The position numbers and the translations under genes are program-made. The notes under the pieces are model-generated. The model saw only the letters and a program-made list of their open reading frames with translations. It searched no databases and was not told where the DNA came from. This document shows, one piece after another, positions 1 to 16,475 of a stretch of DNA of 17,409 bases. How positions within the stretch are numbered: position 1 is the stretch's first letter; each line of letters opens with the position of its first letter. The stretch lies in IMG/VR virus record IMGVR_UViG_2585427784_000004, positions 1 to 17,409 of that record; one strand, 5' to 3'. Origin of the DNA: a virus (Duplodnaviria > Heunggongvirae > Uroviricota > Caudoviricetes).

Positions 1-1053
1 TTACGGGGTAATGCCACCCGCTGCCGCCACTTTGTCGCCACTTGGCAGCGTTGCCAGAGGATTGAAACGGAGCGCCGTTTCCAGATGATCCGGTGCCAGA
101 TGTGCGTAACGCATAGTCATTTTTATATCGTGGTGTCCGAGAATTTTTTGTAAGGCCAGAATGTTTCCACCCGACATCATGAAGTGCGCCGCAAACGTAT
201 GGCGCAGAACGTGTGTGAGTTGACCGCGAGGGAGCACGATAGACGTTTTTTCCATCACGGATAAAAATTGAAAATAGCAGTCTGTGAAGAAATTGAACCC
301 ATCAAGCGCCATGATCTCTTCGTAAAGCTCTTTACTGATAGGGATGCTTCTGTTTTTCTTCCCCTTCGTTCTTACAAAGGTAATTCGGTATTTGGTCACC
401 TGTGAACGAGTAAGATTTACGGCTTCTCGCCAGCGTGCGCCTGTGCTTAAGCATATCTTAACTACCAGTGCCAGAATTGGGTCCTGACGTTTGCAATCAG
501 CCAGTAATTCAACAATCTGCTCATGGGTAAGCCATGCCATCTCTTTTTCTGCGATGGTGAATTTTCGCATGTTCTCCAGTGGGTTCGGATACGACCATTC
601 GCCCAGGCGGGATAGTTCGCTAAAAACACTACTTAGATAGCTTTGCTCCAGGTTAATGGTGACCGGGCTTGCTCCTTTCTTCCATTTCTCGCTGAAGTAG
701 ATCTCACCTGTCAGGCGTTTATCTCGATAGTGGGCAAACATTTTAGAGGTTAGATCAGTTGCAAGGGGATTGCCCAGAGCGTCAACCATCAGCAGCAATT
801 TGTCATAGACATGCTGCCCAGCAGTCAGTGATTTACCATGTAGTTTGAACCATAGCTCAACCACGTCTTTCAGTGTTCGACGATCCACTGATTCACCTAG
901 CCAGGGCTTTGCTTCGGTTTCTTCCATCGTGTGACGCTCAAAAGCCAGTGCTTCGCCTTTGGTGGCGAATTGTTTACGCACACGACGCCCACTACGTCCG
1001 GCGGGGTAACATTCGCAAAGCCATTTTCCTGTGGTGAGTTTTCGTACAGCCAT
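1..1053 (-). CDS. int: Tyrosine integrase, P2-Int family (site-specific recombinase)
   Basis: Minus-strand ORF ending with TAA (reverse complement of 1-3). Likely start is ATG (rc of 1051-1053) preceded by GGAGGG. Translation MAVRKLTTGKWLCECYPAGRSGRRVRKQF... with LSTGARWREA and HVLRHTFAAHFMMSGGNILALQKILGHHDIKMTMRYAHL (catalytic R-H-R-Y region) resembles P2 Int as I recall it. The 26 codons upstream of MAVRK in the ORF track are probably not translated. Confidence 0.9.
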   Translation of the reverse strand: MAVRKLTTGKWLCECYPAGRSGRRVRKQFATKGEALAFERHTMEETEAKPWLGESVDRRTLKDVVELWFKLHGKSLTAGQHVYDKLLLMVDALGNPLATDLTSKMFAHYRDKRLTGEIYFSEKWKKGASPVTINLEQSYLSSVFSELSRLGEWSYPNPLENMRKFTIAEKEMAWLTHEQIVELLADCKRQDPILALVVKICLSTGARWREAVNLTRSQVTKYRITFVRTKGKKNRSIPISKELYEEIMALDGFNFFTDCYFQFLSVMEKTSIVLPRGQLTHVLRHTFAAHFMMSGGNILALQKILGHHDIKMTMRYAHLAPDHLETALRFNPLATLPSGDKVAAAGGITP

Positions 1054-1241
1054 AAAAAATGCCCTCCAATAGAGAGCATTTTTACTGTATGTATAACCAG
1101 TGTCAATGTATGAAATCCTGCGACCATACATCTCACTGAAGCCATAATGAAGTAGGCTATTCTTTTTGCTATGTGATCATGTAACTTTTGCGGTTAACCT
1201 GTGGCTCATTTTTATTTTAGGCGCAGATATAAAAGCAAAAG

Positions 1242-1448: not shown

Positions 1449-2018
1449 CTATTTAACATACTTGACTGTTAAACTTATAATTTTACCAATTATTTCAATG
1501 TCTTCTATCTTACATTCAAAGGCTCTGTTTCCACCCTCGACGAAGATTCTTCCACCGGGTAAACGAGTAATGTCACGGATCGTTATTTCGCCATCAATAC
1601 TTATTACCCATTTACCATCACGTATATCATCAAATTCCTTATCACAAATAAATTCAGAATTATTATCTGTGATTACAAAAAGATTCTTGAATGCCGACGG
1701 TAGAAATTCTCTATCGAAAATATAAAAACCGTCTTCACACAAGGCCCCATCAGATAATACATATTTAGCAACTTCCATAGTATTTGTATTACCTGAAGTT
1801 TGCTTTGAACCATGCCCGGTTGTGAGCCAATTAAGCGAGGTGCCTGTTTCAAGGGCGCACTGGATTACCCATTCTGCTGGGAATGAGTCACGCATGTAGC
1901 GTGTGGCGAGTGTACTTTTAGAGATTCCTAAATGATCGCACAACGCCTGTCGAGTCTTGAATCCATAAGCTTCTACCATGCGCTCTATGGCGCCTCGTCC
2001 GCCTTTCTCCAAATTCAT
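1449..2018 (-). CDS. cI: Phage 186-type CI immunity repressor (N-terminal HTH, C-terminal oligomerisation domain)
   Basis: 189 aa from ATG (rc of 2016-2018) with GGAG upstream. Sequence ...AYGFKTRQALCDHLGISKSTLATRYMR...CALETGTSLNWLTTGHG... fits the Phage_CI_repr family pattern. Divergent from the cox/apl-cII operon. Confidence 0.85.
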   Translation of the reverse strand: MNLEKGGRGAIERMVEAYGFKTRQALCDHLGISKSTLATRYMRDSFPAEWVIQCALETGTSLNWLTTGHGSKQTSGNTNTMEVAKYVLSDGALCEDGFYIFDREFLPSAFKNLFVITDNNSEFICDKEFDDIRDGKWVISIDGEITIRDITRLPGGRIFVEGGNRAFECKIEDIEIIGKIISLTVKYVK

Positions 2019-2042
2019 GGTCACTCCAAGTGAACTTTTATC

Positions 2043-3721: not shown

Positions 3722-3948
3722 TGGCTGATGCAATGGATCTCGTACAGCAGCGCGTTGAAGAAGAACGCCAACGCCATATCCGTGCTGCCCGTGCCAAAAC
3801 GCCGGGCGTGTCCCGCGTGCTTTGCATTGAGTGTGAAGCGCCAATTCCGCCAGCACGCCGCCGTGCCATTCCGGGTGTGCAGCTTTGCATTACCTGTCAG
3901 GAAATCGCAGAGCTGAAAGGCAAACATTACAACGGAGGTGCTGTATGA
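3721..3948 (+). CDS. TraR/DksA-family C4 zinc-finger protein
   Basis: 75 aa with CIEC...16 residues...CITC spacing (CxxC-N17-CxxC-like) typical of the TraR/DksA zinc finger. Start overlaps the upstream stop and the stop overlaps the dam start (ATGA), implying translational coupling. Confidence 0.75.
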   Translation: MADAMDLVQQRVEEERQRHIRAARAKTPGVSRVLCIECEAPIPPARRRAIPGVQLCITCQEIAELKGKHYNGGAV

Positions 3949-4802
3949 GCACCATCCTGAAATGGGCGGGAAATAAAACTGCCATAATGTCCGAACTAAA
4001 AAAACATCTTCCTGCTGGCCCGCGACTGGTTGAACCTTTCGCGGGTTCCTGTGCTGTGATGATGGAGACGGATTATCCCAGCTATCTGGTTGCGGATATT
4101 AATCCTGATTTAATCAACCTCTATAAAAAGGTTGCCGCTGATTGTGAATCGTTTATATCTCGCGCCAGAGTTTTATTTGAGATCGCAAACAGGGAGGTGG
4201 CTTATTACAACATAAGGCAGGAGTTTAATTACTCAACTGAAATTACTGATTTCATGAAAGCGGTATATTTCCTGTATCTCAATCGTCACGGTTACCGTGG
4301 TTTATGTCGCTATAACAAGAGCGGGCATTTCAACATTCCCTACGGTAATTATAAAAATCCATATTTCCCTGAAAAAGAAATTCGCGCATTTGCAGAAAAG
4401 GCCCAGCGAGCAACGTTTATCTGCGCCAGCTTTGATGAAACGCTGGCGATGTTGAAGGCGGGGGATGTGGTGTATTGCGATCCGCCGTATGACGGTACGT
4501 TTTCCGGCTATCACACTGACGGCTTCACTGAAGATGACCAGTATCACCTGGCATCTGTTCTTGAACATCGGTCATCAGAAGGACATCCGGTCATTGTTTC
4601 TAACAGTGACACATCCCTGATCCGTTCGCTGTATCGCAATTTTACTCACCACTACATCAAGGCAAAACGCAGCATCGGTGTGGCAGCTGGCGAGGGTAAA
4701 TCAGCAACAGAAATCATTGCTGTTTCCGGGCCGCGCTGCTGGGTGGGATTTGATTATTCGCGTGGCGTGGATAGTTCTGCCGTGTACGGAGTACGTGCAT
4801 GA
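3945..4802 (+). CDS. dam: DNA adenine (N6) methyltransferase, Dam-like (GATC class presumed)
   Basis: From ATG 3945 (GGAGG upstream): [11 protein letters not shown]... N-terminal motif, catalytic DPPY ([12 protein letters not shown]), and [20 protein letters not shown]. About 285 aa. The 20-codon upstream extension in the ORF track overlaps the TraR gene and is probably untranslated. Confidence 0.85.
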
Positions 4803-7213
4803 GTCATGCCGATATGAACAACTGCTGCGGCTTTAACGAAGCTGCCGCATCGTTCTCATGGAACAGCTCGAAAAAGGCCATTAACCCTTATCTGGACCCG
4901 GTGGAAGTTGCGCCGGTTTCTACGCTTTCAAACCTGATCACTCTGTACGCTGCCGATAACGAGCAGGAACAGCTGCGCCGTGAGGCGCTGAGTGATCAGG
5001 TCTGGGAGCGTTATTTCTTTAATGAATCCCGTGATCCTGTCCAGCGCGAAATGGAACAGGATAAGCTCATTAGTCGGGCAAAGCTGGCGCATGAGCAGCA
5101 GCGTTTTAATCCGGATATGGTCATTCTGGCGGACGTCAACGCCCAGCCTTCCCATATCAGCAAGCCGCTGATGCAACGTATTGAATACTTCAGCAGCCTG
5201 GGCAGGCCAAAGGCTTATTCCCGCTATTTACGTGAGACGATTAAGCCATGTCTGGAACGACTGGAGCATGTACGCGACAGTCAGCTATCTGCATCTTTTC
5301 GCTTTATGGCAAGCCATGAAGGGCTGGACGGCCTGCTGATCCTGCCTGAAATGAGTCAGGATCAGGTGAAACGCCTGTCCACCCTGGTAGCTGCGCATAT
5401 GAGTATGTGCCTTGATGCCGCTTGTGGCGATTTGTATGCCACCGATGACGTTAAGCCAGAAGAAATCCGCAATACATGGGAAAGGGTGGCAGCGGAAACC
5501 CTGCGTCTGGATGTCATCCCGCCTGCGTTTGAGCAACTCCGTCGGAAAAGAAACCGCCGTAAACCCGTGCCCTATGAACTCATTCCGGGTTCGCTGGCGC
5601 GTATGTTGTGCGCCGACTGGTGGTATCGGAAATTATGGAAGATGCGTTGCGAATGGCGGGAAGAGCAGTTGCGTGCTGTCTGCCTTGTCAGCAAAAAAGC
5701 ATCTCCCTATGTCAGCTATGAAGCCGTGTTGCATAAACGTGAGCAGCGCCGTAAGTCGCTGGAGTTTTTCCGTTCTCATGAACTGGTGAACGAAGACGGC
5801 GACACGCTAGACATGGAGGATGTGGTAAACGCCAGCAGCAGCAACCCTGCGCATCGCCGCAATGAGATGATGGCCTGTGTTAAAGGTCTGGAGCTTATCG
5901 CGGAAATGCGCGGTGACTGCGCCGTTTTCTACACCATCACCTGTCCGTCACGTTTCCATTCCACGCTAAATAACGGCAGGCCCAACCCGACCTGGACAAA
6001 TGCGACGGTAAGACAAAGCAGCGATTATCTGGTCGGTATGTTTGCTGCATTTCGTAAGGCGATGCACAAAGCCGGGTTGCGCTGGTATGGCGTGCGGGTG
6101 GCTGAGCCGCATCACGACGGCACAGTTCACTGGCACCTGTTGTGTTTCATGCGCAAAAAAGACCGCCGCGCCATTACAGCATTGTTGCGTAAGTTTGCTA
6201 TCCGTGAAGACCGCGAGGAGCTGGGCAATAACACGGGGCCGCGCTTTAAGTCTGAGCTGATTAACCCGCGCAAAGGAACGCCGACAAGCTACATAGCGAA
6301 ATACATCAGTAAGAACATTGACGGGCGTGGTCTGGCTGGCGAGATCAGCAAGGAAACGGGTAAATCTCTGCGTGATAACGCTGAATACGTGAATGCCTGG
6401 GCGTCTTTGCATCGTGTTCAGCAATTCCGCTTCTTTGGCATTCCGGGGCGTCAGGCTTACCGTGAACTGCGATTGCTGGCTGGTCAGGCGGTAAGGCAAA
6501 AGGGGGACAAAAAAGCAGGTGCGCCGGTACTGGATAACCCGCGCCTTGATGCCATCCTGGCTGCTGCTGATGCTGGTTGTTTTGCCACCTACATCATGAA
6601 GCAGGGCGGCGTACTGGTTCCCCGTAAATATCACCTCATCAGAACCGCTTATGAAATCAACGAAGAGCCGACCGCCTATGGCGATCACGGCATTCGTATT
6701 TATGGCATCTGGTCACCCATTGCAGAGGGCAAGATCTGCACTCATGCAGTGAAGTGGAAAATGGTTCGTAAAGCCGTTGACGTTCAGGAGGCGGCAGCCG
6801 ACCAGGGCGCTTGCGCCCCTTGGACTCGTGGCAATAACTGTCCCCTTGCTGAAAATTTGAACCAACAAGGGAAAGACAAATCAGCTGATGGGGACTCCAT
6901 AACGGATATTACCCGTATGAATGACAAGGAGTTGCACGATTACCTGCACAGTATGAGCAAAAAAGAGCGCCGGGAACTGGCTGCAAGGTTACGCCAGGTG
7001 AAACCGAAACGGCGTAAAGACTACAAACAGCGAATTACAGACCATCAGCGACAGCAGCTCGTCTATGAACTGAAGTCCAGGGGATTTGATGGCAGCGAGA
7101 AAGAAGTCGATTTGCTCCTTCGCGGCGGCAGTATTCCGTCAGGAGCAGGCCTGCGTATCTTCTATCGGAACCAGCGTCTGAAGGAAGATGATAAGTGGCG
7201 GAACCTGTATTAA
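4799..7213 (+). CDS. Replication initiation endonuclease gpA (rolling-circle HUH nickase, P2/186 A family)
   Basis: 804-aa ORF. HUH-type motif TVHWHLLCF (H-W-H at 6128-6136) and paired catalytic tyrosines YIAKYISK (Tyr codons 6290-6292 and 6302-6304), as in P2 gpA. ATG overlaps the dam stop. Confidence 0.9.
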
Positions 7214-7307
7214 TTACGCGGGTTAACAATTCGTGCTCTTAATAATACCAGGCATATCAGGCCGATGAACGTAAAAAAACGTTTTACATCAGTAAGATTA
7301 TTATATA

Positions 7308-7323
7308 CTGTAAATATAAACAG
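7308..7323 (+). promoter_or_regulatory. LexA (SOS) box CTGTAAATATAAACAG overlapping the promoter of the tum/dinI-like operon
   Basis: Exact CTGT-N8-ACAG palindrome with an AT-rich centre, 43 bp upstream of the first ORF. -10-like TATACT at 7304-7309 overlaps its 5' edge. Analogous to the LexA-controlled p95-tum arrangement of phage 186. Confidence 0.6.
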
Positions 7324-7365
7324 TGGTTATGCATACAGTATTGTTTTGGTGTCATAGGAGGAAAG

Positions 7366-7554
7366 ATGCAGGACTATTTTTTGGAGTCTTTGAAGCTCCA
7401 GCGCATTGATTTTTTTCTTAAGCTTGTAGCGGCTAGTGAGTGTAGTGATGAAGAGAAGGGGCTGGCTCTGCAGTGGGTTTCTGAACTGACAGATGAACTC
7501 ATGGCAAAAATCAGAAGCCACGAATACAACCGCTCAATGGATGTCATCAGCTGA
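7366..7554 (+). CDS. Small protein (62 aa) in the SOS operon; possibly the N-terminal part of a Tum-like antirepressor
   Basis: ATG 7366 preceded by AGGAGG (7356-7361). Directly downstream of the LexA box. Ends 10 nt before the DinI-like ORF, whose reading frame is already open from 7493. Confidence 0.5.
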   Translation: MQDYFLESLKLQRIDFFLKLVAASECSDEEKGLALQWVSELTDELMAKIRSHEYNRSMDVIS

Positions 7555-7564
7555 GGTGACTTTT

Positions 7565-7798
7565 ATGCGCATTGAAATAATGATCGATAAAGAGCAGAAG
7601 ATTAGCCAGTCTACCCTGGACGCCCTTGAATCCGAGCTTTACCGCAATCTGCGCCCCCTGTATCCCAAAACGGTAATTCGCATTCGCAAAGGTAGCTCTA
7701 ACGGTGTGGAACTAACCGGACTGCAACTGGATGAAGAAAGAAAACAAGTGATGAAAATTATGCAGAAGGTGTGGGAGGACGACAGCTGGCTGCATTAA
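7565..7798 (+). CDS. DinI-family protein (SOS-regulated RecA modulator / Tum C-terminal-like domain)
   Basis: 77 aa from ATG 7565 (GAGGTG 5 nt upstream). MRIEIMIDKEQKISQSTLDALESELYRNL...RKQVMKIMQKVWEDDSWLH aligns by eye with E. coli DinI (MRIEVTIAK...DALAGELSRR...KQRISEILQETWESADDW). Confidence 0.8.
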   Translation: MRIEIMIDKEQKISQSTLDALESELYRNLRPLYPKTVIRIRKGSSNGVELTGLQLDEERKQVMKIMQKVWEDDSWLH

Positions 7799-7806
7799 GA
7801 AACGTT

Positions 7807-7840
7807 GCCCCCAGGAGGATTCATTCTGATGGGGGCTAGT
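7807..7840 (+). terminator. Weak candidate hairpin after the DinI-like gene
   Basis: GCCCCCA (7807-7813) pairs with TGGGGGC (7830-7836) around a 16-nt loop, followed by TAGTTTGG. The loop is long and the U tract poor. Confidence 0.25.
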
Positions 7841-8204
7841 TTGGGTAACGAGTGAAACGAGGCGTAAGGTGGGCGGCCATTTTGATAAGTGATTGTACGA
7901 TTTGTGTTGTGAGTTCAACGGGTCGATGCAACGCTATCCTTAATCAAGGGCACGTTGCTCATACCCATCGATGCAATGAAAATCCATACTCATGGGGAAG
8001 ACCAGAATGTCCCTGCCTTTTTCATTTTGTTCAGCACATGCACTATGGCCATTGCCTTCCCAAGCTAGCTATCGTAATCACTCAGCGTCAGTAAACTACT
8101 GAAAAATTGTTTTACCTTGTATATCAATAATGCCAAATCATACCCAAAAAATAGAAAATAATTAGATCGACAGGCAGAAGGCAATGTGAATAATCTTAAA
8201 AACC

Positions 8205-8265: not shown

Positions 8266-8847
8266 ATGAGCGAAAGGAAAAGAATTGAAGATCAGTATCT
8301 TCTCTATCATTTAACATGTATGGATAATCTACCTAGTATTTTAGACACAGGATTAAGATCTCGTGCATCAGTAAAAGGTGAGTTTGTTGATGTGGCCGAC
8401 GGTGAAATAATAACAGGACGCGAAGCATTAAATTTGCAAACAATGGTTCCTTTTCATTTCTTTACTAAGAATCCATTTGATGGAAGAGTCCTGAAAGATC
8501 ATAAGGAAAAATCATTTTGTATTATTTCGGTTTGTCGGGCATTTGCCAAAGAAAATGGTTGGAAAGTTATCCCTAAACATCCATTATCCACCAGTTCTGT
8601 TATAGACCTCTTAGATTATGAACAAGGAATGGCCCAAATTGACTGGGAGCTTATGAATATAAGGGATTATAAAAATGCAGAATGCAAATCTGTATGTATG
8701 GCTGAGTGTTTATCAAGTGTAACGGTCGAGCCGAAAAATTTCCATTGCATCTTTGTCAAAAATGATAACGAAAAAAAATATGTTGAAAGGTTGATAAAAC
8801 AACAAGGATTAAGTATATTGATAACGATCAACACTTATATGTTCTAA
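8266..8847 (+). CDS. darT: DarT-like DNA ADP-ribosyltransferase toxin (DUF4433-type)
   Basis: 193 aa. N-terminal LLYHLTCMDNLPSILDTGL matches the DarT hallmark (..YH.T...NLP.IL..GL) as I remember it from Thermus DarT, and a C-terminal ...CMAECLSSV... Glu-containing motif sits where the catalytic Glu would be. Followed 4 nt later by a macrodomain gene. AT-rich codon usage. Confidence 0.75.
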   Translation: MSERKRIEDQYLLYHLTCMDNLPSILDTGLRSRASVKGEFVDVADGEIITGREALNLQTMVPFHFFTKNPFDGRVLKDHKEKSFCIISVCRAFAKENGWKVIPKHPLSTSSVIDLLDYEQGMAQIDWELMNIRDYKNAECKSVCMAECLSSVTVEPKNFHCIFVKNDNEKKYVERLIKQQGLSILITINTYMF

Positions 8848-8851
8848 TTCT

Positions 8852-9823
8852 ATGATTAAGTATGCAAGCGGAAATCTTCTAAACTCTACATCGCAAGCTC
8901 TTGTGAATGCTGTAAACTGCCAAGGAGTCATGGGAAAGGGTATTGCTTTGGCTTTTAAAGAAACTTTTCCCTATAATTTCGAAGTTTATAAGAGAGCATG
9001 CGCCACTGGTACAATGAAAATTGGACAGGTTTTAATTGTAGAGGAAAAGGGAAAAATAATTGTAAACTTTCCCACTAAAGATAGTTGGAGAAAAAAATCA
9101 ACATATGATTTTATCTCGCAAGGCCTTGAATCTTTAGCAAAAATTATAGACGAAAAAAAAATTACATCAATATCAATACCACCTTTAGGCTGTGGTAATG
9201 GGGGCCTCGATTGGAATAAGGTTGAGGCTCTTATTTTAAAAACTTTTCAAAATTTAGATAATGTTGATGTGGTAATTTATCCGCCTGCAACTAACAATCA
9301 ACTTTCAAAAAATAAAAATGTTATTAATGCTAAGCATCTTTTGGTTCACTACGCCTATGGAAAATTAAAAGTTAAGCAAAAATATTCCCTTTATACAGTT
9401 TTTTATATTTGCGAATGTATTGAGAAAGCAAATCTTTTTTTATTCGATTTTAAACATGGTCGGCCATACTCTTCTGAGTTAGAAAATATTATGAAGGATA
9501 TAGCAAACCTTAAAGTTGAGTTGCAAGGAGATTTTGATGCTTTTATTGAAGATTATATTAATACTCATCAATCCAAAGAGTTACAAACCGAGTTTGGTAA
9601 ACTAATCTCAACTTTAAATCCAAGTATAAGTTTGCTCAATGCTCTTAAAAATAAGATTGATTATACAGATAGCGTACATGTGATTACGAGAATTGCTAAA
9701 GAAAAAGATCATGGCTTGCATATTGACAATTTCAAAGAATATGAAAATATTGTGCAGCATTTAATTAAAAATGGATTGGTAATCGAAGATATTTTTAACG
9801 AACTAAAAATAAAGGGAAGTTAG
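8852..9823 (+). CDS. darG: DarG-like antitoxin: N-terminal macrodomain (ADP-ribosyl hydrolase) plus C-terminal domain
   Basis: 323 aa. The first ~150 aa carry macrodomain signatures (NAVNCQGVMGKGIALAF..., ...ISIPPLGCGNGGLDWNKV...). The C-terminal ~170 aa is helical and K/E-rich, consistent with a DarT-binding domain. Gene order toxin then antitoxin. Confidence 0.8.
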   Translation: MIKYASGNLLNSTSQALVNAVNCQGVMGKGIALAFKETFPYNFEVYKRACATGTMKIGQVLIVEEKGKIIVNFPTKDSWRKKSTYDFISQGLESLAKIIDEKKITSISIPPLGCGNGGLDWNKVEALILKTFQNLDNVDVVIYPPATNNQLSKNKNVINAKHLLVHYAYGKLKVKQKYSLYTVFYICECIEKANLFLFDFKHGRPYSSELENIMKDIANLKVELQGDFDAFIEDYINTHQSKELQTEFGKLISTLNPSISLLNALKNKIDYTDSVHVITRIAKEKDHGLHIDNFKEYENIVQHLIKNGLVIEDIFNELKIKGS

Positions 9824-10394: not shown

Positions 10395-10477
10395 CGCGCG
10401 CTGGAGGGATAAATGGAATTGAAAATGTACCTTCTTAGAGATAACCTTCGCTAAAACTTTATTACTAAGGAGTGATA

Positions 10478-12220
10478 ATGAGTACCTGGAACCAAGCCTA
10501 TTCTGCAAGAGAAGATTTGAAATCGTATGGTGATAATGGACTGGCTTTGTTTGCGTTAGCATTACATTTCAGAATTGATGACATTGATAGTGTCGCAGCA
10601 GAGTCCATTACCGATGGACATGACGATAAGAAATGTGACCTTGTGTATATTAATGAAGAAGAAGAATTTGCTGTACTTGCTCAATGCTATTTCTCAAGCA
10701 AAGATAGACAGGAAGCTCCAGCAAATAAAGCGAGTGATCTTAATATTGCTTTAGCATGGCTTCTGCAAAGAGATTTGCATGATGTACCCGATAGAATAAA
10801 ATCTTCTGCTCAACAGATACGGACATCAATCAAACAAGGGAAAATTAAAACTCTGTACGTTTGGTATGTTCATAACTTACCATCTTCAACAAATGTGGCT
10901 CAAGAGCTAATTACGGTTCAGCAGACAGCAACAACTATTTTAAAACATGATTTTGAAGATGCTAAAATACAAGTGCATGCAATGGAAGTAGGCACTGAAA
11001 AGTTGACGGAATGGTATAGTGAATCACTATCACCAATACTGGTTGATGAGATTTTCAATATTAAAGTCAGTGATGGTGGCTATGAAATAAAAGGAGATAA
11101 TTGGAATGCATTCTGTACTACCATTCAGGGAAGAGATTTAGCTAGAGCGTACAAAAAGCATAAATTAAAAATATTTTCAGCAAATGTTAGAGACTACCTT
11201 GGATCAAGGTCATCTGATTCAAATATCAATAATGGTATCCGTAACAGTGCGGAAAATTCAGCATCAGAATTTTGGGCATACAATAATGGCGTAACTGTTT
11301 TGGTTCATGAATATAAATTCAATGAAGCATCAAAGAATCTTGAAATCAGAGGGATGTCAATAGTTAATGGAGCACAGACAACAGGTGCTTTAGGAACGCT
11401 GCCACGATTACCTCCAGAATCAGTTAAAGTCCAAGCTAGATTTATAAAAGTCAAAGATGCGGATGCTGATCTAATTCAGAATATAATTCAGTATAATAAC
11501 AGTCAGAATAAAGTTGAAGCATCTGATTTCAGAAGCACAGACAAAATTCAAAAACGACTTAAAAATGAATTTGCTTCTATTCCTGATGCTGAATATGATG
11601 GAGGAAGACGAGGAGGTGCTGAAAGTGTCATTCGTCGAAAAACTAATCTACTGCCTTCTTATACTGTTGGTCAAGCTTTGATGAGTTTCCATGGAGAGCC
11701 GACGGTAGCTTATAATCAGCGATCTGCAATTTGGACTAATGACTCTCATTATTCTAAGATTTTTAATGACAGTACAAAAGCTTCACATATTGTTTGTGCG
11801 TATTCTCTCATGCGGTGTATTGAGAACAAGAAAATAGCTTTGGCAAAGAAAGATACTCTTTCAAAAAATGATAGCGCTCAATTGGGATATCTCAGGCATC
11901 GTGGTTCAATACCTTTATTGTGCTCGGCTATTGCCGAATGTTTGGAAAACTTTTTGGGCCGTCCCGTTCCTAATTTATTTAGAGTTTCGTTTGGAAGTAC
12001 GGTTTCTCCTTCTCAGGCTGAAAGTATTTGGGAGCCAATTGTAGATGTGTGTCTGGCTTTAAGTAATCAGTTGCTGCCTGCACTGGTTGAAGGAGGGTTG
12101 AAAAGTCCTACAAAAGTTAAAGATTGTATATCAAATTTTTCACAGCTTATTACTGCAACGGCCCAAATGAACCAGCCTGTATATGAGGCATTTGAGAAAA
12201 AAATCAAATCCGCATTCTAA
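10478..12220 (+). CDS. 580-aa orphan cargo protein; candidate single-gene abortive-infection/defence protein, tentatively AIPR-like
   Basis: ATG 10478 with TAAGGAG upstream. Long, clean ORF with AT-rich codon usage. Internal motifs FWAYNNGVTVLVHEY and MSIVNGAQTTGALG resemble what I recall of AIPR / DGQHR-type Abi proteins; the N-terminal segment is acidic (DGHDDKKCDLVYINEEEEFAVLAQ). Followed by a strong terminator. Family assignment is unverified. Confidence 0.8.
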   Translation: MSTWNQAYSAREDLKSYGDNGLALFALALHFRIDDIDSVAAESITDGHDDKKCDLVYINEEEEFAVLAQCYFSSKDRQEAPANKASDLNIALAWLLQRDLHDVPDRIKSSAQQIRTSIKQGKIKTLYVWYVHNLPSSTNVAQELITVQQTATTILKHDFEDAKIQVHAMEVGTEKLTEWYSESLSPILVDEIFNIKVSDGGYEIKGDNWNAFCTTIQGRDLARAYKKHKLKIFSANVRDYLGSRSSDSNINNGIRNSAENSASEFWAYNNGVTVLVHEYKFNEASKNLEIRGMSIVNGAQTTGALGTLPRLPPESVKVQARFIKVKDADADLIQNIIQYNNSQNKVEASDFRSTDKIQKRLKNEFASIPDAEYDGGRRGGAESVIRRKTNLLPSYTVGQALMSFHGEPTVAYNQRSAIWTNDSHYSKIFNDSTKASHIVCAYSLMRCIENKKIALAKKDTLSKNDSAQLGYLRHRGSIPLLCSAIAECLENFLGRPVPNLFRVSFGSTVSPSQAESIWEPIVDVCLALSNQLLPALVEGGLKSPTKVKDCISNFSQLITATAQMNQPVYEAFEKKIKSAF

Positions 12221-12281: not shown

Positions 12282-12662
12282 TCATAATGAGTATGTCGCA
12301 AAACGGATAATTTCATCTTTCAACCATCTATTTAGTTCCTGTAGCCGTTTCTGTAGCGGCATCAATTCGTTACGAACAAAAACGCAACTGGCTTTCTCTA
12401 CATCCCCAAACCCTCCAACATTATTAGGCATAATCCCCATCATCTGAGGCGGCACACGGTGTGCCGCCATCATGTCATCGCGGCTGACATTTTTGATATT
12501 CAGAAACTCATCCTTCGCCGCGACTTCTGATATCTGGCGGTATTGCCCGTCTGCGCACAGCAGGCCGGGGGCCAGATTGCTGTGGGACAGGTCGATGTCC
12601 ACCTTATCGGCTTTGTTGCGCCCACGGTTGAACAGCGCACCGGACCAGAACGGATACGACGC
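12282..12662 (-). pseudogene. C-terminal fragment (~125 codons) of the phage portal gene (gpQ-like); N-terminal two thirds deleted
   Basis: Minus-strand frame open through 12282-12746. Protein-like C-terminal sequence ...RVPPQMMGIMPNNVGGFGDVEKASCVFVRNELMPLQKRLQELNRWLKDEIIRFATYSL. The first 28 codons of the tracked ORF are antisense to gpU and not credible. Orientation and position next to cos match P2 Q. Portal identity is from memory. Confidence 0.5.
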
Positions 12663-13148
12663 ATGATGATGGTGCTGGGATTGTACGTGTTTATGCTGCG
12701 CACCGTGCCGTATCAGGAGCTGCAGTATCAACGCAGCTGGCGACATGCGGCAAACAGCCGGGTAAACCGACGTCCGTCCACGCAGTTTCTGGGACCGGAC
12801 AACGACATGCTGACGCTTTCCGGTGTTCTTATGCCGGAGATAACAGGTGGCAGGCTGTCGTTGCTGGCACTGGAGCAGATGGCAGAACAGGGGAAAGCAT
12901 GGCCCCTGATTGAAGGCAGCGGCACGATTTATGGCATGTATGTGATTGAGGGACTGAATCAGACTAAAACGGAGTTTTTCCGCGACGGTATGCCGCGCCG
13001 GATTGAGTTCACCCTGTCGCTCAAAAGGGTGGATGAATCATTGTCCGATATGTTCGGTGATCTCAGTGCGCAACTGAATAATCTGCAGGACACGGCAACG
13101 TCTGCCTTAAGCGATATCAGTAAAACGGTGGGAGGGCTGCTGTCGTGA
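12663..13148 (+). CDS. Tail protein gpU (P2 U family)
   Basis: About 160 aa from the ATG triplet at 12663-12671. Sequence MVLGLYVFMLRTVPYQ...RSWRHAANSRVNRRPSTQFLGPDNDMLTLSGVLMPEITGG...EGSGTIYGMYVIEG... Stop overlaps the gpD start (GTGA). The 40 upstream codons in the ORF track are read-through over the portal fragment. Confidence 0.8.
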   Translation: MMMVLGLYVFMLRTVPYQELQYQRSWRHAANSRVNRRPSTQFLGPDNDMLTLSGVLMPEITGGRLSLLALEQMAEQGKAWPLIEGSGTIYGMYVIEGLNQTKTEFFRDGMPRRIEFTLSLKRVDESLSDMFGDLSAQLNNLQDTATSALSDISKTVGGLLS

Positions 13149-14245
13149 ATTTCAGCTCTGAACTGCTTAACAAAGGCAACAAAACTCCCGCATTCAGCAT
13201 CAGTATTGAGGGCAGGGATATCACCACTGTGCTGGATAACCGCCTGATGAGTCTGACGCTGACGGACAATCGGGGCTTTGAAGCGGACCAGCTTGATCTG
13301 GAGCTGGACGACGCCGATGGAAAAATAGCGCTGCCGCGCCGTGGTGCGGTCATTACGCTGGCGCTGGGCTGGAAGGGGCAGCCGCTTTTCCCGAAAGGGG
13401 CATTCACGGTGGACGAGATTGAACACACTGGCGCACCGGACCGCCTGACTATCCGGGCGCGAAGTGCTGATTTTCGGGAAACGCTGAATCCCCGCCGTGA
13501 AAAGTCGTGGCACAAGACCACTGTCGGGGAAGTGGTGAAGGAAATAGCTGTGCGGCACAAACTGAAGATGGCACTGGGTAAAGACCTGTCAGATAAACCC
13601 GTGGAACATATAGACCAGACCAATGAGAGTGACGGCAGTTTTCTGATGCGGCTGGCGCGCCAGTACGGTGCTATTGCGTCGGTGAAAAATGGCAATCTGT
13701 TATTCATCCGGCAGGGACAGGGTAAAAGCGCCAGCGGTAAACCACTACCGGTGATCACTATCACACGTAAGGACGGCGACAGTCACCGCTTTACCCTGGC
13801 AGATCGCGGAGCCTATACGGGCGTAATTGCCAGTTGGTTGCATACCCGCGAACCCGCGAAGAAAGAAAGCACCACGGTGAAGCGTAAGCGCAGGACTAAG
13901 AAGCAGAAGAAAGAGCCGGAAGCGAAGCAGGGCGATTACCTGGTGGGTACGGATGAAAACGTGCTGGTACTTAATCGCACCTATGCCAACCGGAGCAACG
14001 CCGAACGGGCGGCAAAAATGCAGTGGGAACGCCTGCAACGCGGCGTTGCGTCATTCTCGCTACAACTGGCGGAAGGGCGGGCAGATCTCTACACGGAAAT
14101 GCCAGTGAAAGTCAGTGGCTTTAAACAGCTGATAGATGATGCGGAATGGACCATTACGACTCTGACACATACCGTCAGCCCGGATAACGGTTTTACGACC
14201 AGTCTGGAGCTTGAAGTGAGGATTGATGATTTCGAAATGGAATGA
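13145..14245 (+). CDS. Tail protein gpD (P2 late gene D family)
   Basis: 366-aa ORF directly after U and before ogr, the P2/186 order F-E-T-U-D-ogr. Carries a basic insert KKESTTVKRKRRTKKQKKEPEAKQ. Start is GTG at 13145, overlapping the U stop. Confidence 0.85.
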   Translation: MNFSSELLNKGNKTPAFSISIEGRDITTVLDNRLMSLTLTDNRGFEADQLDLELDDADGKIALPRRGAVITLALGWKGQPLFPKGAFTVDEIEHTGAPDRLTIRARSADFRETLNPRREKSWHKTTVGEVVKEIAVRHKLKMALGKDLSDKPVEHIDQTNESDGSFLMRLARQYGAIASVKNGNLLFIRQGQGKSASGKPLPVITITRKDGDSHRFTLADRGAYTGVIASWLHTREPAKKESTTVKRKRRTKKQKKEPEAKQGDYLVGTDENVLVLNRTYANRSNAERAAKMQWERLQRGVASFSLQLAEGRADLYTEMPVKVSGFKQLIDDAEWTITTLTHTVSPDNGFTTSLELEVRIDDFEME

Positions 14246-14789: not shown

Positions 14790-16475
14790 TTATCCTAATC
14801 CTGGCCATACCATGACGATGATTGTCCCTGCCAGCGTCAGCAGGACGTTGGCGATTGCATAGGTGCCCGCATAGCCCAGCGCCGGGATGTTACTGCGAGC
14901 TGTATCACTGATGATCTCCATTGCCGGCGCGCAGGTACGTGCGCCCATCATTGCGCCGAACAACAGCGCGCGGTTCATTCGCAATACATAAGCACCGAAC
15001 AAGAAACAGATAACCACGGGCACCAGACTGACAATCAATCCGGCAATCAACATCTGACCGCCAATCGCGCCCAGGCCGTTATTAATACCGCTACCGGCGC
15101 TCAGACCAACGCCTGCCATAAACACCATCAAGCCGAACTCTTTCACCATGCTTAATGCACCCTGCGGAATGTAACCGAAGGTCGGGTGGTTAGCACGCAT
15201 AAAGCCCAGCATAATTCCGGCGAATAACAACCCGGCAGCGTTCCCCATGCCGAAACTGAATGTGCTGAACTGGAAGGTGATCATCCCGATCATCAGCCCA
15301 ATAACAAAGAAGGCGCAGAATGCCAGCAGGTCAGTGACCTGGCTGTGAATCGAGATAAAGCCGATGCGATCGGCGATGGTTTTTACGCGGCGGGCATCGC
15401 CGCTGACTTGTAAAACGTCACCTTTGTTAAGCACGACGTTGTCATCTATCGGCATCTCAATCTGGCTACGAATGACGCGGTTAAGGAAGCAACCGTGATC
15501 GGTCAACTTCAGTTGTGCGAGACGTTTACCTACAGCGTTATGGTTTTTAACGACCACTTCTTCAGTGACGATACGCATGTCGAGAAGGTCACGATCGAAA
15601 ACTTCTTTACCGTTACGGAAGCTGGGATCGAGTCGGGCATGGGCGTCGGGATAGCCTACCAACGCTATTTCATCGCCCATTTGTAGCACGGCATCACCGT
15701 CTGGATTTGCCAGAATCCCGTTACGTCGAATACGTTCAATGTAGCAGCCGGTTTGTCGATAAATACCCAGTTCACGCAGATTTTTGCCGTCGGTCCAGGC
15801 CACCAGTTCCGGGCCGACGCGATAGGCGCGGATCACCGGTAAATAAACCTTACGGTTGGCATCAGTGTCCAGGCCACGTTCGCGGGCGATTTGCTGGGCG
15901 CTGGTCTGTAAGTCCTGATGCTGCAATTTCGGCAAGTAACGCGCACCAACAATCAAACTCACCAGACCGATTAAATAGGTTAAGGCATACCCGAGGCTCA
16001 GATTATCCAGTGCCAGTGAGAGCTGCCTGCTTTCCATGCCGGAATGACGCAGTGTATCGCCAGCACCGACCAGAACCGGTGTCGACGTCATAGAGCCTGC
16101 TAACATACCGGCCGTCAGGCCAATATCCCAGCCAAACAGCTTACCTAACCCTAAGGCGATCACCAGCGCACTGCCAACCATCACCAGTGCTAACATTAGG
16201 TAATTTTTCCCATCGCGAAAAAAAATGGAAAAAAAGTTCGGTCCGGCTTCGACCCCGACGCAGAAAATAAACAGCATAAAGCCAAGATTAAGCGCATCGG
16301 TGTTAATGCTGAAATGTTGTTGGCCTAATAACAGCGATACGACTAAAACGCCAATGGAATTACCCAGTTGGATCGAACCAAGTCGTAACTTTCCGAGACA
16401 TAGCCCAAGCGCGAGGACCACAAATAATAACAGAATGTAATTCCCATTTAACAATTCGGCGACGTTTATATTCAC
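14790..16475 (-). CDS. ybjL: Putative transport protein YbjL (AAE / YidE-YbjL family, duplicated transmembrane and TrkA-C domains)
   Basis: 561 aa, GTG start. Sequence [46 protein letters not shown]... recognised as E. coli YbjL. Gene order ybjL-ybjM-grxA as in E. coli K-12. Confidence 0.9.

Follow-up and report, generated by a model that had tools for sequence, protein, structure and literature searches.

Is the SOS locus found here a tum gene broken by mutation, the product of a sequencing error, or a natural pair of genes? Phage 186 encodes its antirepressor Tum as one protein, whereas the corresponding locus of the prophage considered here contains, behind a predicted LexA box, two small ORFs in different frames. 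The original prediction, which was made from the window (the whole stretch of 17,409 nucleotides analysed here), left these three explanations side by side. The comparative evidence selects the last one: the locus is very probably a natural two-gene SOS operon of a Fels-2-like prophage of the P2/186 family. In this operon, transcription would be controlled by LexA, TumA would block the CI repressor and TumB would act on RecA.

The window corresponds to an E. coli prophage of this family adjoining ybjL. It successively carries an integrase gene (1-1131, minus strand), the gene of a 186-type CI immunity repressor (1449..2024, minus strand), a Cox/Apl-like gene, the genes of CII and of a Dam-type methylase, a homologue of the replication gene A (4799-7213; Pfam Phage_GPA, E 3.7e-127) and the tum locus. 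As is characteristic of Tum and TumA, the locus directly follows gene A and its prophage encodes a 186-type CI. Farther downstream are located genes encoding DarT (8266-8847), a DarG-like macrodomain protein (8852-9823) and an AIPR/Abi protein (10472-12220), then a portal/terminase fragment (12282-12746, minus strand) that abuts gpU and gpD. Head, lysis and most tail genes are absent. Since this prophage is a deletion remnant, its induction would lead at most to excision and replication, and would produce no particles. The term remnant, as used in the original prediction, is hence appropriate for the prophage, which lacks these genes, but not for the tum locus itself.

Anatomy of the locus and putative SOS promoter

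ORF1 (7366..7554, plus strand; 62 aa) is assigned as a tumA-type gene by homology to the N-terminal part of 186 Tum and is preceded by the Shine-Dalgarno sequence AGGAGG (7356-7361, plus strand). Its TGA stop codon (7552-7554) is followed by a 10-nt spacer, then by ORF2 (7565..7798, plus strand), a tumB-type gene whose frame is offset by +1 and whose 77-aa product belongs to the DinI family according to Pfam. The Shine-Dalgarno sequence of tumB, GAGG (7553..7556, plus strand), overlaps the tumA stop codon. The positions originally proposed for the LexA box core (CTGT-N8-ACAG, 7308-7323) and for both ORFs are correct, and a recheck confirmed that the ORF2 frame is already open from 7493. Furthermore, a one-base skip within 7493-7554 does give a fusion near the size of Tum (143 aa versus 146 aa), as had been pointed out.

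The predicted LexA operator is the 20-mer TACTGTAAATATAAACAGTG (7306..7325, plus strand), which agrees with the LexA consensus TACTGTATATATATACAGTA at 17 of 20 positions. Its CTGT-N8-ACAG core occurs a single time in the window, for 0.17 expected occurrences. Since at least one match was also found in 33 of 200 shuffled sequences, the box considered alone is merely suggestive. It becomes convincing because it is conserved ahead of the ORF1 homologues: of 33 loci from other species, 31 have at the same place upstream of this gene a CTG-N10-CAG box that agrees with the consensus at 15-19 of 20 positions, and in one of the two loci without a box the upstream region is cut by a contig end. An equivalent box is also located ahead of 186 tum and PSP3 tumA, and the box of the window is identical to that of Fels-2.

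This operator is associated with a putative p95-like SOS promoter. According to its position and conservation, TTTACA (7283..7288, plus strand) would be the -35 hexamer. It is located 17 nt 5' of TACTGT (7306..7311, plus strand), the left end of the LexA box, which would act as the -10 hexamer, as judged from its position and by analogy with 186 p95. The succession of TT(T/C)AC(A), a spacer of about 17-18 nt and TACTGT is common to the aligned loci, 186 p95 and PSP3. In the 186 record, the -10 hexamer of p95 (29044-29049) consists of the first six bases of the LexA site (29044-29063); at the sequence level, the layout of predicted -35 hexamer, -10 hexamer and LexA box matches exactly the one annotated for p95. 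A generic promoter scan did not call this p95-like promoter since its -10 hexamer, TACTGT, matches only at 3/6 positions. Binding of LexA to this operator would repress transcription of the operon.

A conserved element, ATACAGT (7333..7339, plus strand), is found 7 nt 3' of the LexA box, and 23 of 34 loci have [AG]TACAGT at this position. This element may belong to a second, degenerate LexA site (7321-7340, 14/20 agreement), of which it would form the right half; the left half is poor, with GTG in place of CTG. At the other end of the locus, directly 3' of tumB and at the edge of a variable hotspot, a GC-rich hairpin (7807..7836, plus strand; -20.4 kcal/mol, z -2.4) may be a weak terminator. 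It was not called by a terminator scan and has no proper U tract; 186 has a partial terminator, t95a, at the equivalent place. Nucleotide similarity to Fels-2 stops at about 7796.

Relationship of the two ORFs to 186 Tum

The original prediction described 186 Tum as a single protein with a DinI-like C-terminal part. This agrees with the 186 record and with our alignments, in which Tum is one 146-aa protein whose C-terminal half is DinI-like. Each of the two ORFs corresponds to one half of this protein. For ORF1, profile methods were needed to establish this relationship because pairwise BLASTP against 186 Tum gave no match; pairwise BLASTP against PSP3 TumA gave none either. The profile of the ORF1 family, whose alignment comprises 28 diverse members, matches residues 3-44 of 186 Tum (hhalign probability 94.9%, E 4.5e-8). 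The motif of these 28 members, E-x3-L-Q-R-I-x-L-x2-R-L-V-A-x3-C-x3-[DE]-K-x-L-A-L-x-W-x2-E-L, is evident in the same residues of Tum.

PHROG families point in the same direction. ORF1 matches phrog_698 (E 5.9e-38), and 186 Tum also matches this family (E 2.4e-5), as well as phrog_8554 (E 1.4e-11), which ORF1 matches too, and phrog_1993 (E 1e-22), the family of PSP3 TumA. Therefore, on the basis of hhalign and of these cross-matches to the N-terminal module of Tum, ORF1 encodes a TumA-type protein and is presumed to be a CI antirepressor. The relationship between the ORF1 family and PSP3 TumA is marginal (hhalign probability 8.6%, E 0.004). Neither Pfam nor NCBIfam gave a family for ORF1, and families 698, 8554 and 1993 are listed in PHROGs as 'unknown function'. 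AlphaFold confidently models ORF1 as a hairpin of two helices (2-23 and 28-61; pLDDT 88), the turn of which contains the conserved Cys26; a profile search of PDB sequences found no solved relative.

The assignment of ORF2 is more direct. Its residues 14-76 match the whole of Pfam DinI PF06183 (positions 1-63/63; E 6.6e-23, 81.3 bits for a cut-off of 24.2), and its residues 1-75 match the structure of E. coli DinI, 1GHH (E 2.7e-6). Over its full length, it aligns with residues 71-146 of 186 Tum (41% identity), and it is 78% identical to PSP3 TumB. The conserved C-terminal acidic motif W-E-D-D-S-W is kept. However, its score against the NCBIfam DinI equivalog (42.7 bits) is below the cut-off of 111, which indicates a paralogue and not the chromosomal DinI. 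By analogy with DinI, the ORF2 product may act on RecA filaments.

The two genes differ in their persistence. ORF1 is intact in 32 of 33 species loci and encodes exactly 62 aa in 29 of them. The DinI-like gene gave no tblastn match in 13 of the 33 loci, two of which (L027 and L030) retain a remnant of its start, and it is decayed by a stop codon, a frameshift or a truncation in four more. Hence, the DinI-like partner is optional across the surveyed loci. Where it is intact, most loci have a G-rich Shine-Dalgarno sequence (GGGGA, GAGG or AGGG) in the 9-12 nt spacer that precedes it. Moreover, Erwinia phage ENT90 carries the 186-type N-terminal module alone, directly followed by the portal gene.

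One gene or two

The two-gene arrangement of the window is carried by many phages. Both ORFs are found at 96-98% nucleotide identity in Fels-2 (STM2728 and STM2726.1), RE2010, vB_EcoM-813R9, 500465-1 and Klebsiella phages, the latter amounting to about 45 carriers. A protein search added Cartapus and SopEPhi (orf10 and orf11); the latter, like Fels-2, is a functional phage that can be induced. In the phage collection, the stand-alone ORF1 type is present in 66 records versus 32 for the 186-type N-terminus, and the fused Tum of 186 is the minority form among sequenced phages. The 516-bp locus was also found in 1125 of 5426 complete E. coli genomes (about a fifth), 1083 of which cover at least 80% of it. 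Furthermore, a survey of one genome per species recovered 33 loci from further Enterobacterales species, belonging to Escherichia, Citrobacter, Kluyvera, Raoultella, Enterobacter, Lelliottia, Leclercia, Klebsiella, Serratia, Pantoea, Erwinia, Tatumella, Buttiauxella and Siccibacter. These sequence surveys indicate that the two-gene arrangement is normal and widespread.

These data bear on the idea that the split results from a sequencing or assembly error in the window, which has nothing in its favour except the frame offset. The 516-bp locus is 100% identical in an independent complete genome and at least 99% identical in 116 E. coli records and, among the matches listed, all have two genes. 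The ORF1/ORF2 junction TGAGGTGACTTTTATG is also present in independent phage genomes. An error can thus be set aside, its probability being practically nil. Among the E. coli matches listed that span both genes, all are annotated as 'hypothetical protein' followed by 'DinI-like family protein'.

A tum gene inactivated by a frameshift mutation, with loss of SOS induction of the prophage, would account for two ORFs that correspond to the halves of Tum, lie one base apart in frame and would give 143 aa, against 146 aa in 186, if one base were skipped; the deletions undergone by the rest of the prophage would also be compatible with such a pseudogene. However, functional phages and more than 1000 E. 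coli genomes share the identical arrangement, and each ORF has its own Shine-Dalgarno sequence and ATG. The presence of the same two ORFs in intact related prophages, which the original prediction had named as evidence against a split tum, is thus observed at the gene level.

The spacer between the two genes is also informative. In the 16 genome loci where the 77-aa DinI-like gene is intact, the ORF1 stop and the ORF2 ATG are separated by 9 nt (two loci), 10 nt (four), 11 nt (seven) or 12 nt (three); tumA and tumB of PSP3 are 3 nt apart. Since spacer length varies by lineage, the relative frames 0, +1 and +2 all occur. The occurrence of all three frames excludes a recent frameshift, and two independently translated genes can explain the pattern. 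Furthermore, ORF1 and ORF2 have median pairwise dN/dS of 0.069 and 0.072, respectively, values of about 0.07 indicating that both ORFs are under strong purifying selection across these loci, although such selection cannot be assumed for the window copy because its prophage lost head, tail and lysis genes.

Fused relatives were also looked for. When 1.84 billion representative proteins were scanned in full with HMMER, no fusion of an N-terminal TumA domain of the ORF1 family with DinI was found. The 67 ORF1 relatives retrieved from these 1.84 billion proteins are nearly all 50-100 aa long. Longer proteins with the ORF1 domain (100-133 aa) were considered as candidate fusions and rejected, being upstream start extensions, read-throughs into unrelated sequence or chimeras. 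The window locus does not have the one reading frame that defines single-polypeptide Tum of 186 type (~146 aa), and no fused relative of its family was detected in the protein libraries searched. A locus that is truly decaying has another appearance: in Siccibacter (L034), the LexA box is degenerate and ORF1 is cut to 20 aa, whereas the window keeps its LexA box and a full-length ORF1. In view of the two-ORF relatives, the variable spacer, the purifying selection and the lack of fused relatives in these libraries, inactivation of tum by a frameshift is very improbable.

Programmed +1 ribosomal frameshifting within 7493-7554 could in principle yield a Tum-like fusion besides the separate proteins, given that, in the window as in Fels-2, the ATG of ORF2 is preceded by 24 open codons in the same frame. 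However, this open extension is not conserved and is limited to 1-4 codons in many loci. For instance, in L006 and L011, whose spacer is also 10 nt long and whose DinI-like protein is 96% identical, the ORF2 frame closes one codon before the ATG. The relative frame also varies between lineages and, by eye only, the peptide encoded by the extension has no obvious resemblance to the 186 linker. A promoter/terminator scan called a weak hairpin at the ORF1/ORF2 junction, which would sequester the Shine-Dalgarno sequence of tumB. This fold is no better than that of shuffled sequence (z -1.19), which also argues against programmed frameshifting, a mechanism that we consider scarcely credible here. 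Translational coupling of the two genes through this hairpin was dropped for the same reason. The preferred reading remains that of two separately translated genes.

Co-variation with the repressor and comparison with known systems

The CI repressor of the window, presumed target of TumA, is identified by its Pfam domains (Phage_CI_repr, E 2.8e-33; Phage_CI_C, E 2.7e-27) and is 31% identical to 186 CI. Comparison of phages shows that TumA type tracks CI clade. Where the Tum N-terminus shares at least 90% identity with that of 186, CI is 63-100% identical to 186 CI, and in ENT90 these values are 62% for the Tum N-terminus and 58% for CI. Where TumA is of the window type, the identity of CI does not exceed 38% with 186 CI and lies at 38-56% with window CI. 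PSP3-type phages display a third TumA/CI pairing. TumB does not track CI, as illustrated by the 78% identity between TumB of PSP3 and of the window. The persistence of ORF1, the isolated module of ENT90, the annotation of the 186 record and the tracking of CI all fit a role of ORF1 as CI antirepressor and of ORF2 as accessory gene.

Within the Fels-2 type, TumA is 97-98% identical among phages whose CI are only 41-56% identical. Such a near-invariant TumA across divergent CI would not be expected if the two proteins formed a highly specific pair. Compared with that of the window, CI of three representative phages is 61-73% identical in its N-terminal DNA-binding domain and only 25-41% identical in its C-terminal domain. 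Since TumA is near-identical where only the N-terminal domain of CI is conserved, recognition of this domain by TumA is suggested. We tentatively propose, as a possibility that is less likely than not to hold, that Fels-2-type TumA is a broad-spectrum antirepressor that may recognise the conserved N-terminal domain of CI. If so, a single SOS-induced tumA copy, even one carried by a defective remnant, could induce heteroimmune P2-like prophages present in the same cell.

The near-invariance of TumA across heteroimmune CI repressors can also be viewed otherwise: the locus would be a two-gene SOS module in which ORF1 has another SOS-linked role, prophage induction depending on something else. Pfam, NCBIfam and PHROGs, which assign no function to ORF1, leave room for this explanation. 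However, ORF1 is homologous at the profile level to the N-terminal part of 186 Tum, and N-terminally truncated Tum products only 'modulate SOS induction' according to the 186 record. Furthermore, TumA type follows CI clade, position and putative LexA control are as in 186, and what Lemire et al. (PMC3121763) relate about PSP3 and Fels-2 designates the upstream gene as the antirepressor. Another role for ORF1 is therefore unlikely, although it deserves more credit than any of the explanations based on a broken or frameshifted tum.

Under the preferred reading of a two-gene operon with a TumA antirepressor, and by analogy with the work on 186, PSP3 and Fels-2, the following sequence of events can be proposed. 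In an undamaged cell, LexA would sit on the operator that overlaps the -10 hexamer of the p95-like promoter and would keep the operon off. After DNA damage, self-cleavage of LexA would allow its transcription. TumA, a 62-aa protein with a predicted two-helix hairpin fold, would then bind the 186-type CI and stop its binding to DNA, which would activate the early lytic promoter. TumB would be made separately, thanks to a ribosome-binding site of its own; it would probably modulate the activity of RecA filaments during the SOS response and would be dispensable for induction.

The closest known relative of the locus is that of Fels-2. It has 97% nucleotide identity with the window, the same 10-nt spacer, a TumA 96.8% identical and a TumB 100% identical. 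However, its CI is only 41% identical to that of the window, and tumB is followed by an ORF of 243 aa instead of the DarTG/AIPR defence hotspot. The Fels-2 record cross-references TumB of PSP3. As in the window, PSP3 (NC_005340; PSP3p39 and PSP3p40) carries downstream of gene A a LexA box, TACTGTATAAATATACAGTA, then tumA (60 aa, versus 62 aa for ORF1) and a DinI-like tumB (77 aa in both). Unlike that of the window, its TumA belongs to phrog_1993 and is marginally similar to ORF1, its two genes are in frame with a 3-nt spacer, and its CI is from a different clade. The PSP3 record describes tumA as 'similar to 5' end 186 tum; UV induction of prophage' and tumB as 'similar to dinI and 3' end of 186 tum'.

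In passages of Lemire et al. (PMC3121763) that cite Bunny et al. 2002, tum is indicated to be split by a stop codon in Fels-2 and PSP3, the upstream gene being the antirepressor; for PSP3, the result goes back, via the same passages, to a personal communication of G. E. Christie in Bunny et al. 2002. The two-gene form of tum is thus already known, from this literature and from GenBank annotation. Our analysis has little weight as a discovery and its practical value lies in annotation. Thousands of genomes list the 62-aa gene as 'hypothetical protein' or, erroneously, as 'levan regulatory protein', although its product is most likely what makes these common prophages SOS-inducible.

Phage 186 shares with the window the genomic position of the locus, the layout of promoter and operator and the correspondence of the N-terminal part of Tum with ORF1 and of its C-terminal part with ORF2. 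In contrast, its two modules are joined in one polypeptide by a linker of about 25 aa, and identity with the window is low (detected by profiles only for ORF1, 41% for ORF2). In addition to Tum, 186 makes the DinI-like part separately, as Tum95.5, from an internal GTG start. According to the GenBank record of 186, full-length Tum 'inhibits CI DNA binding' and N-terminally truncated products 'modulate SOS induction'. p95 is controlled by LexA and Tum reversibly sequesters CI (PMC7708051).

Lemire, Figueroa-Bossi and Bossi (2011, PMC3121763) have also likened Tum to a fusion of an antirepressor with DinI. The dinI-gfoA/gftA operons of the Gifsy prophages resemble the locus of the window in that they are controlled by LexA and associate a DinI homologue with a small antirepressor directed against an uncleavable repressor (PMC3121763). 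Unlike the locus of the window, they have dinI as first gene and belong to lambdoid prophages. Their antirepressors and repressors presumably come from families that are not related to those described here.

Loss of tumB and decay of the locus in other species

The DinI-like gene tumB (7565-7798 in the window) is dispensable, since roughly half of the loci from other species have lost it or retain it as a pseudogene, while tumA, which encodes the presumed CI antirepressor, is kept intact there. It has decayed in L007, L018, L021, L027, L030 and L035 and is absent from L008, L010, L019, L022, L028, L029, L031-L033 and L036. Genuine inactivation of a tum locus is illustrated by Siccibacter turicensis (L034, 1400-1700), the sole locus in which both the LexA box and tumA are degenerate, the latter ORF being truncated at 20 aa.

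An [AG]TACAGT element located 7 nt 3' of the LexA box is conserved in 23 of the 34 loci. In the window, its core, ATACAGT (7333-7339), lies inside a candidate degenerate second LexA site (7321-7340) that scores 14/20 and has GTG rather than CTG as its left half. The element could be the good half of this degenerate site, or something else.

TumA and the CI repressors

TumA proteins share 97-98% identity among the prophage of the window, the Salmonella prophage Fels-2, 813R9 and Klebsiella phages. Despite this, the CI repressors of the same prophages and phages are only 41-56% identical. Comparison of the CI of the window (1449-2024, minus strand) with those of L037, L038 and L039 gives 61-73% identity for the N-terminal domain and 25-41% for the C-terminal domain. 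This pattern suggests either that TumA is a broad-specificity antirepressor or that modules are shuffled frequently.

The CI of Klebsiella phage ST437-OXA245phi4.2 (L039, 235-1170) is annotated as a 311-aa protein, in which the N-terminal helix-turn-helix domain appears to be present in two tandem copies. In several related Klebsiella phages, tblastn finds CI in two pieces or places.

In some records and in UniRef, TumA-type proteins are named 'levan regulatory (domain) protein'. None of our search results supports this name, which is probably a propagated misannotation.

Flanking genes and the prophage remnant

Similarity to Fels-2 stops around 7796, and the variable P2 hotspot lies there, directly 3' of tumB. 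In the window, this hotspot carries three defence-type genes: those encoding DarT (Pfam, E = 1.1e-21) and a DarG-like macrodomain protein (Macro, E = 6.4e-19), both within 8266-9823, and an AIPR/Abi-alpha-like gene (10472-12220; phrog_1841, E = 4.8e-246). A sigma-70-like promoter match (8167-8194) lies upstream of DarT.

The prophage is a deletion remnant, as the genes at 12282-14245 show. There, a 154-aa minus-strand ORF, in which a terminase-like segment is combined with the last 84 aa (C-terminal) of the portal protein, adjoins gpU (12543-13148) and gpD (13145-14245). Genes for the capsid, for lysis and for the rest of the tail are absent ahead of ybjL (14790-16475).

Comparison with known elements

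A D12-class Dam methyltransferase gene (3885-4802) overlaps the start of the replication gene A; in Fels-2, the annotation of the homologous gene notes a similarity to the methylase of retron Ec67. Erwinia phage ENT90 (L041) carries a stand-alone 79-aa gene (859-1098) corresponding to the 186-type Tum N-terminal module, followed directly by the portal gene and without any DinI-like gene. Hence, whereas this module is part of the fused Tum in 186, it also occurs unfused, as a separate gene, in ENT90.
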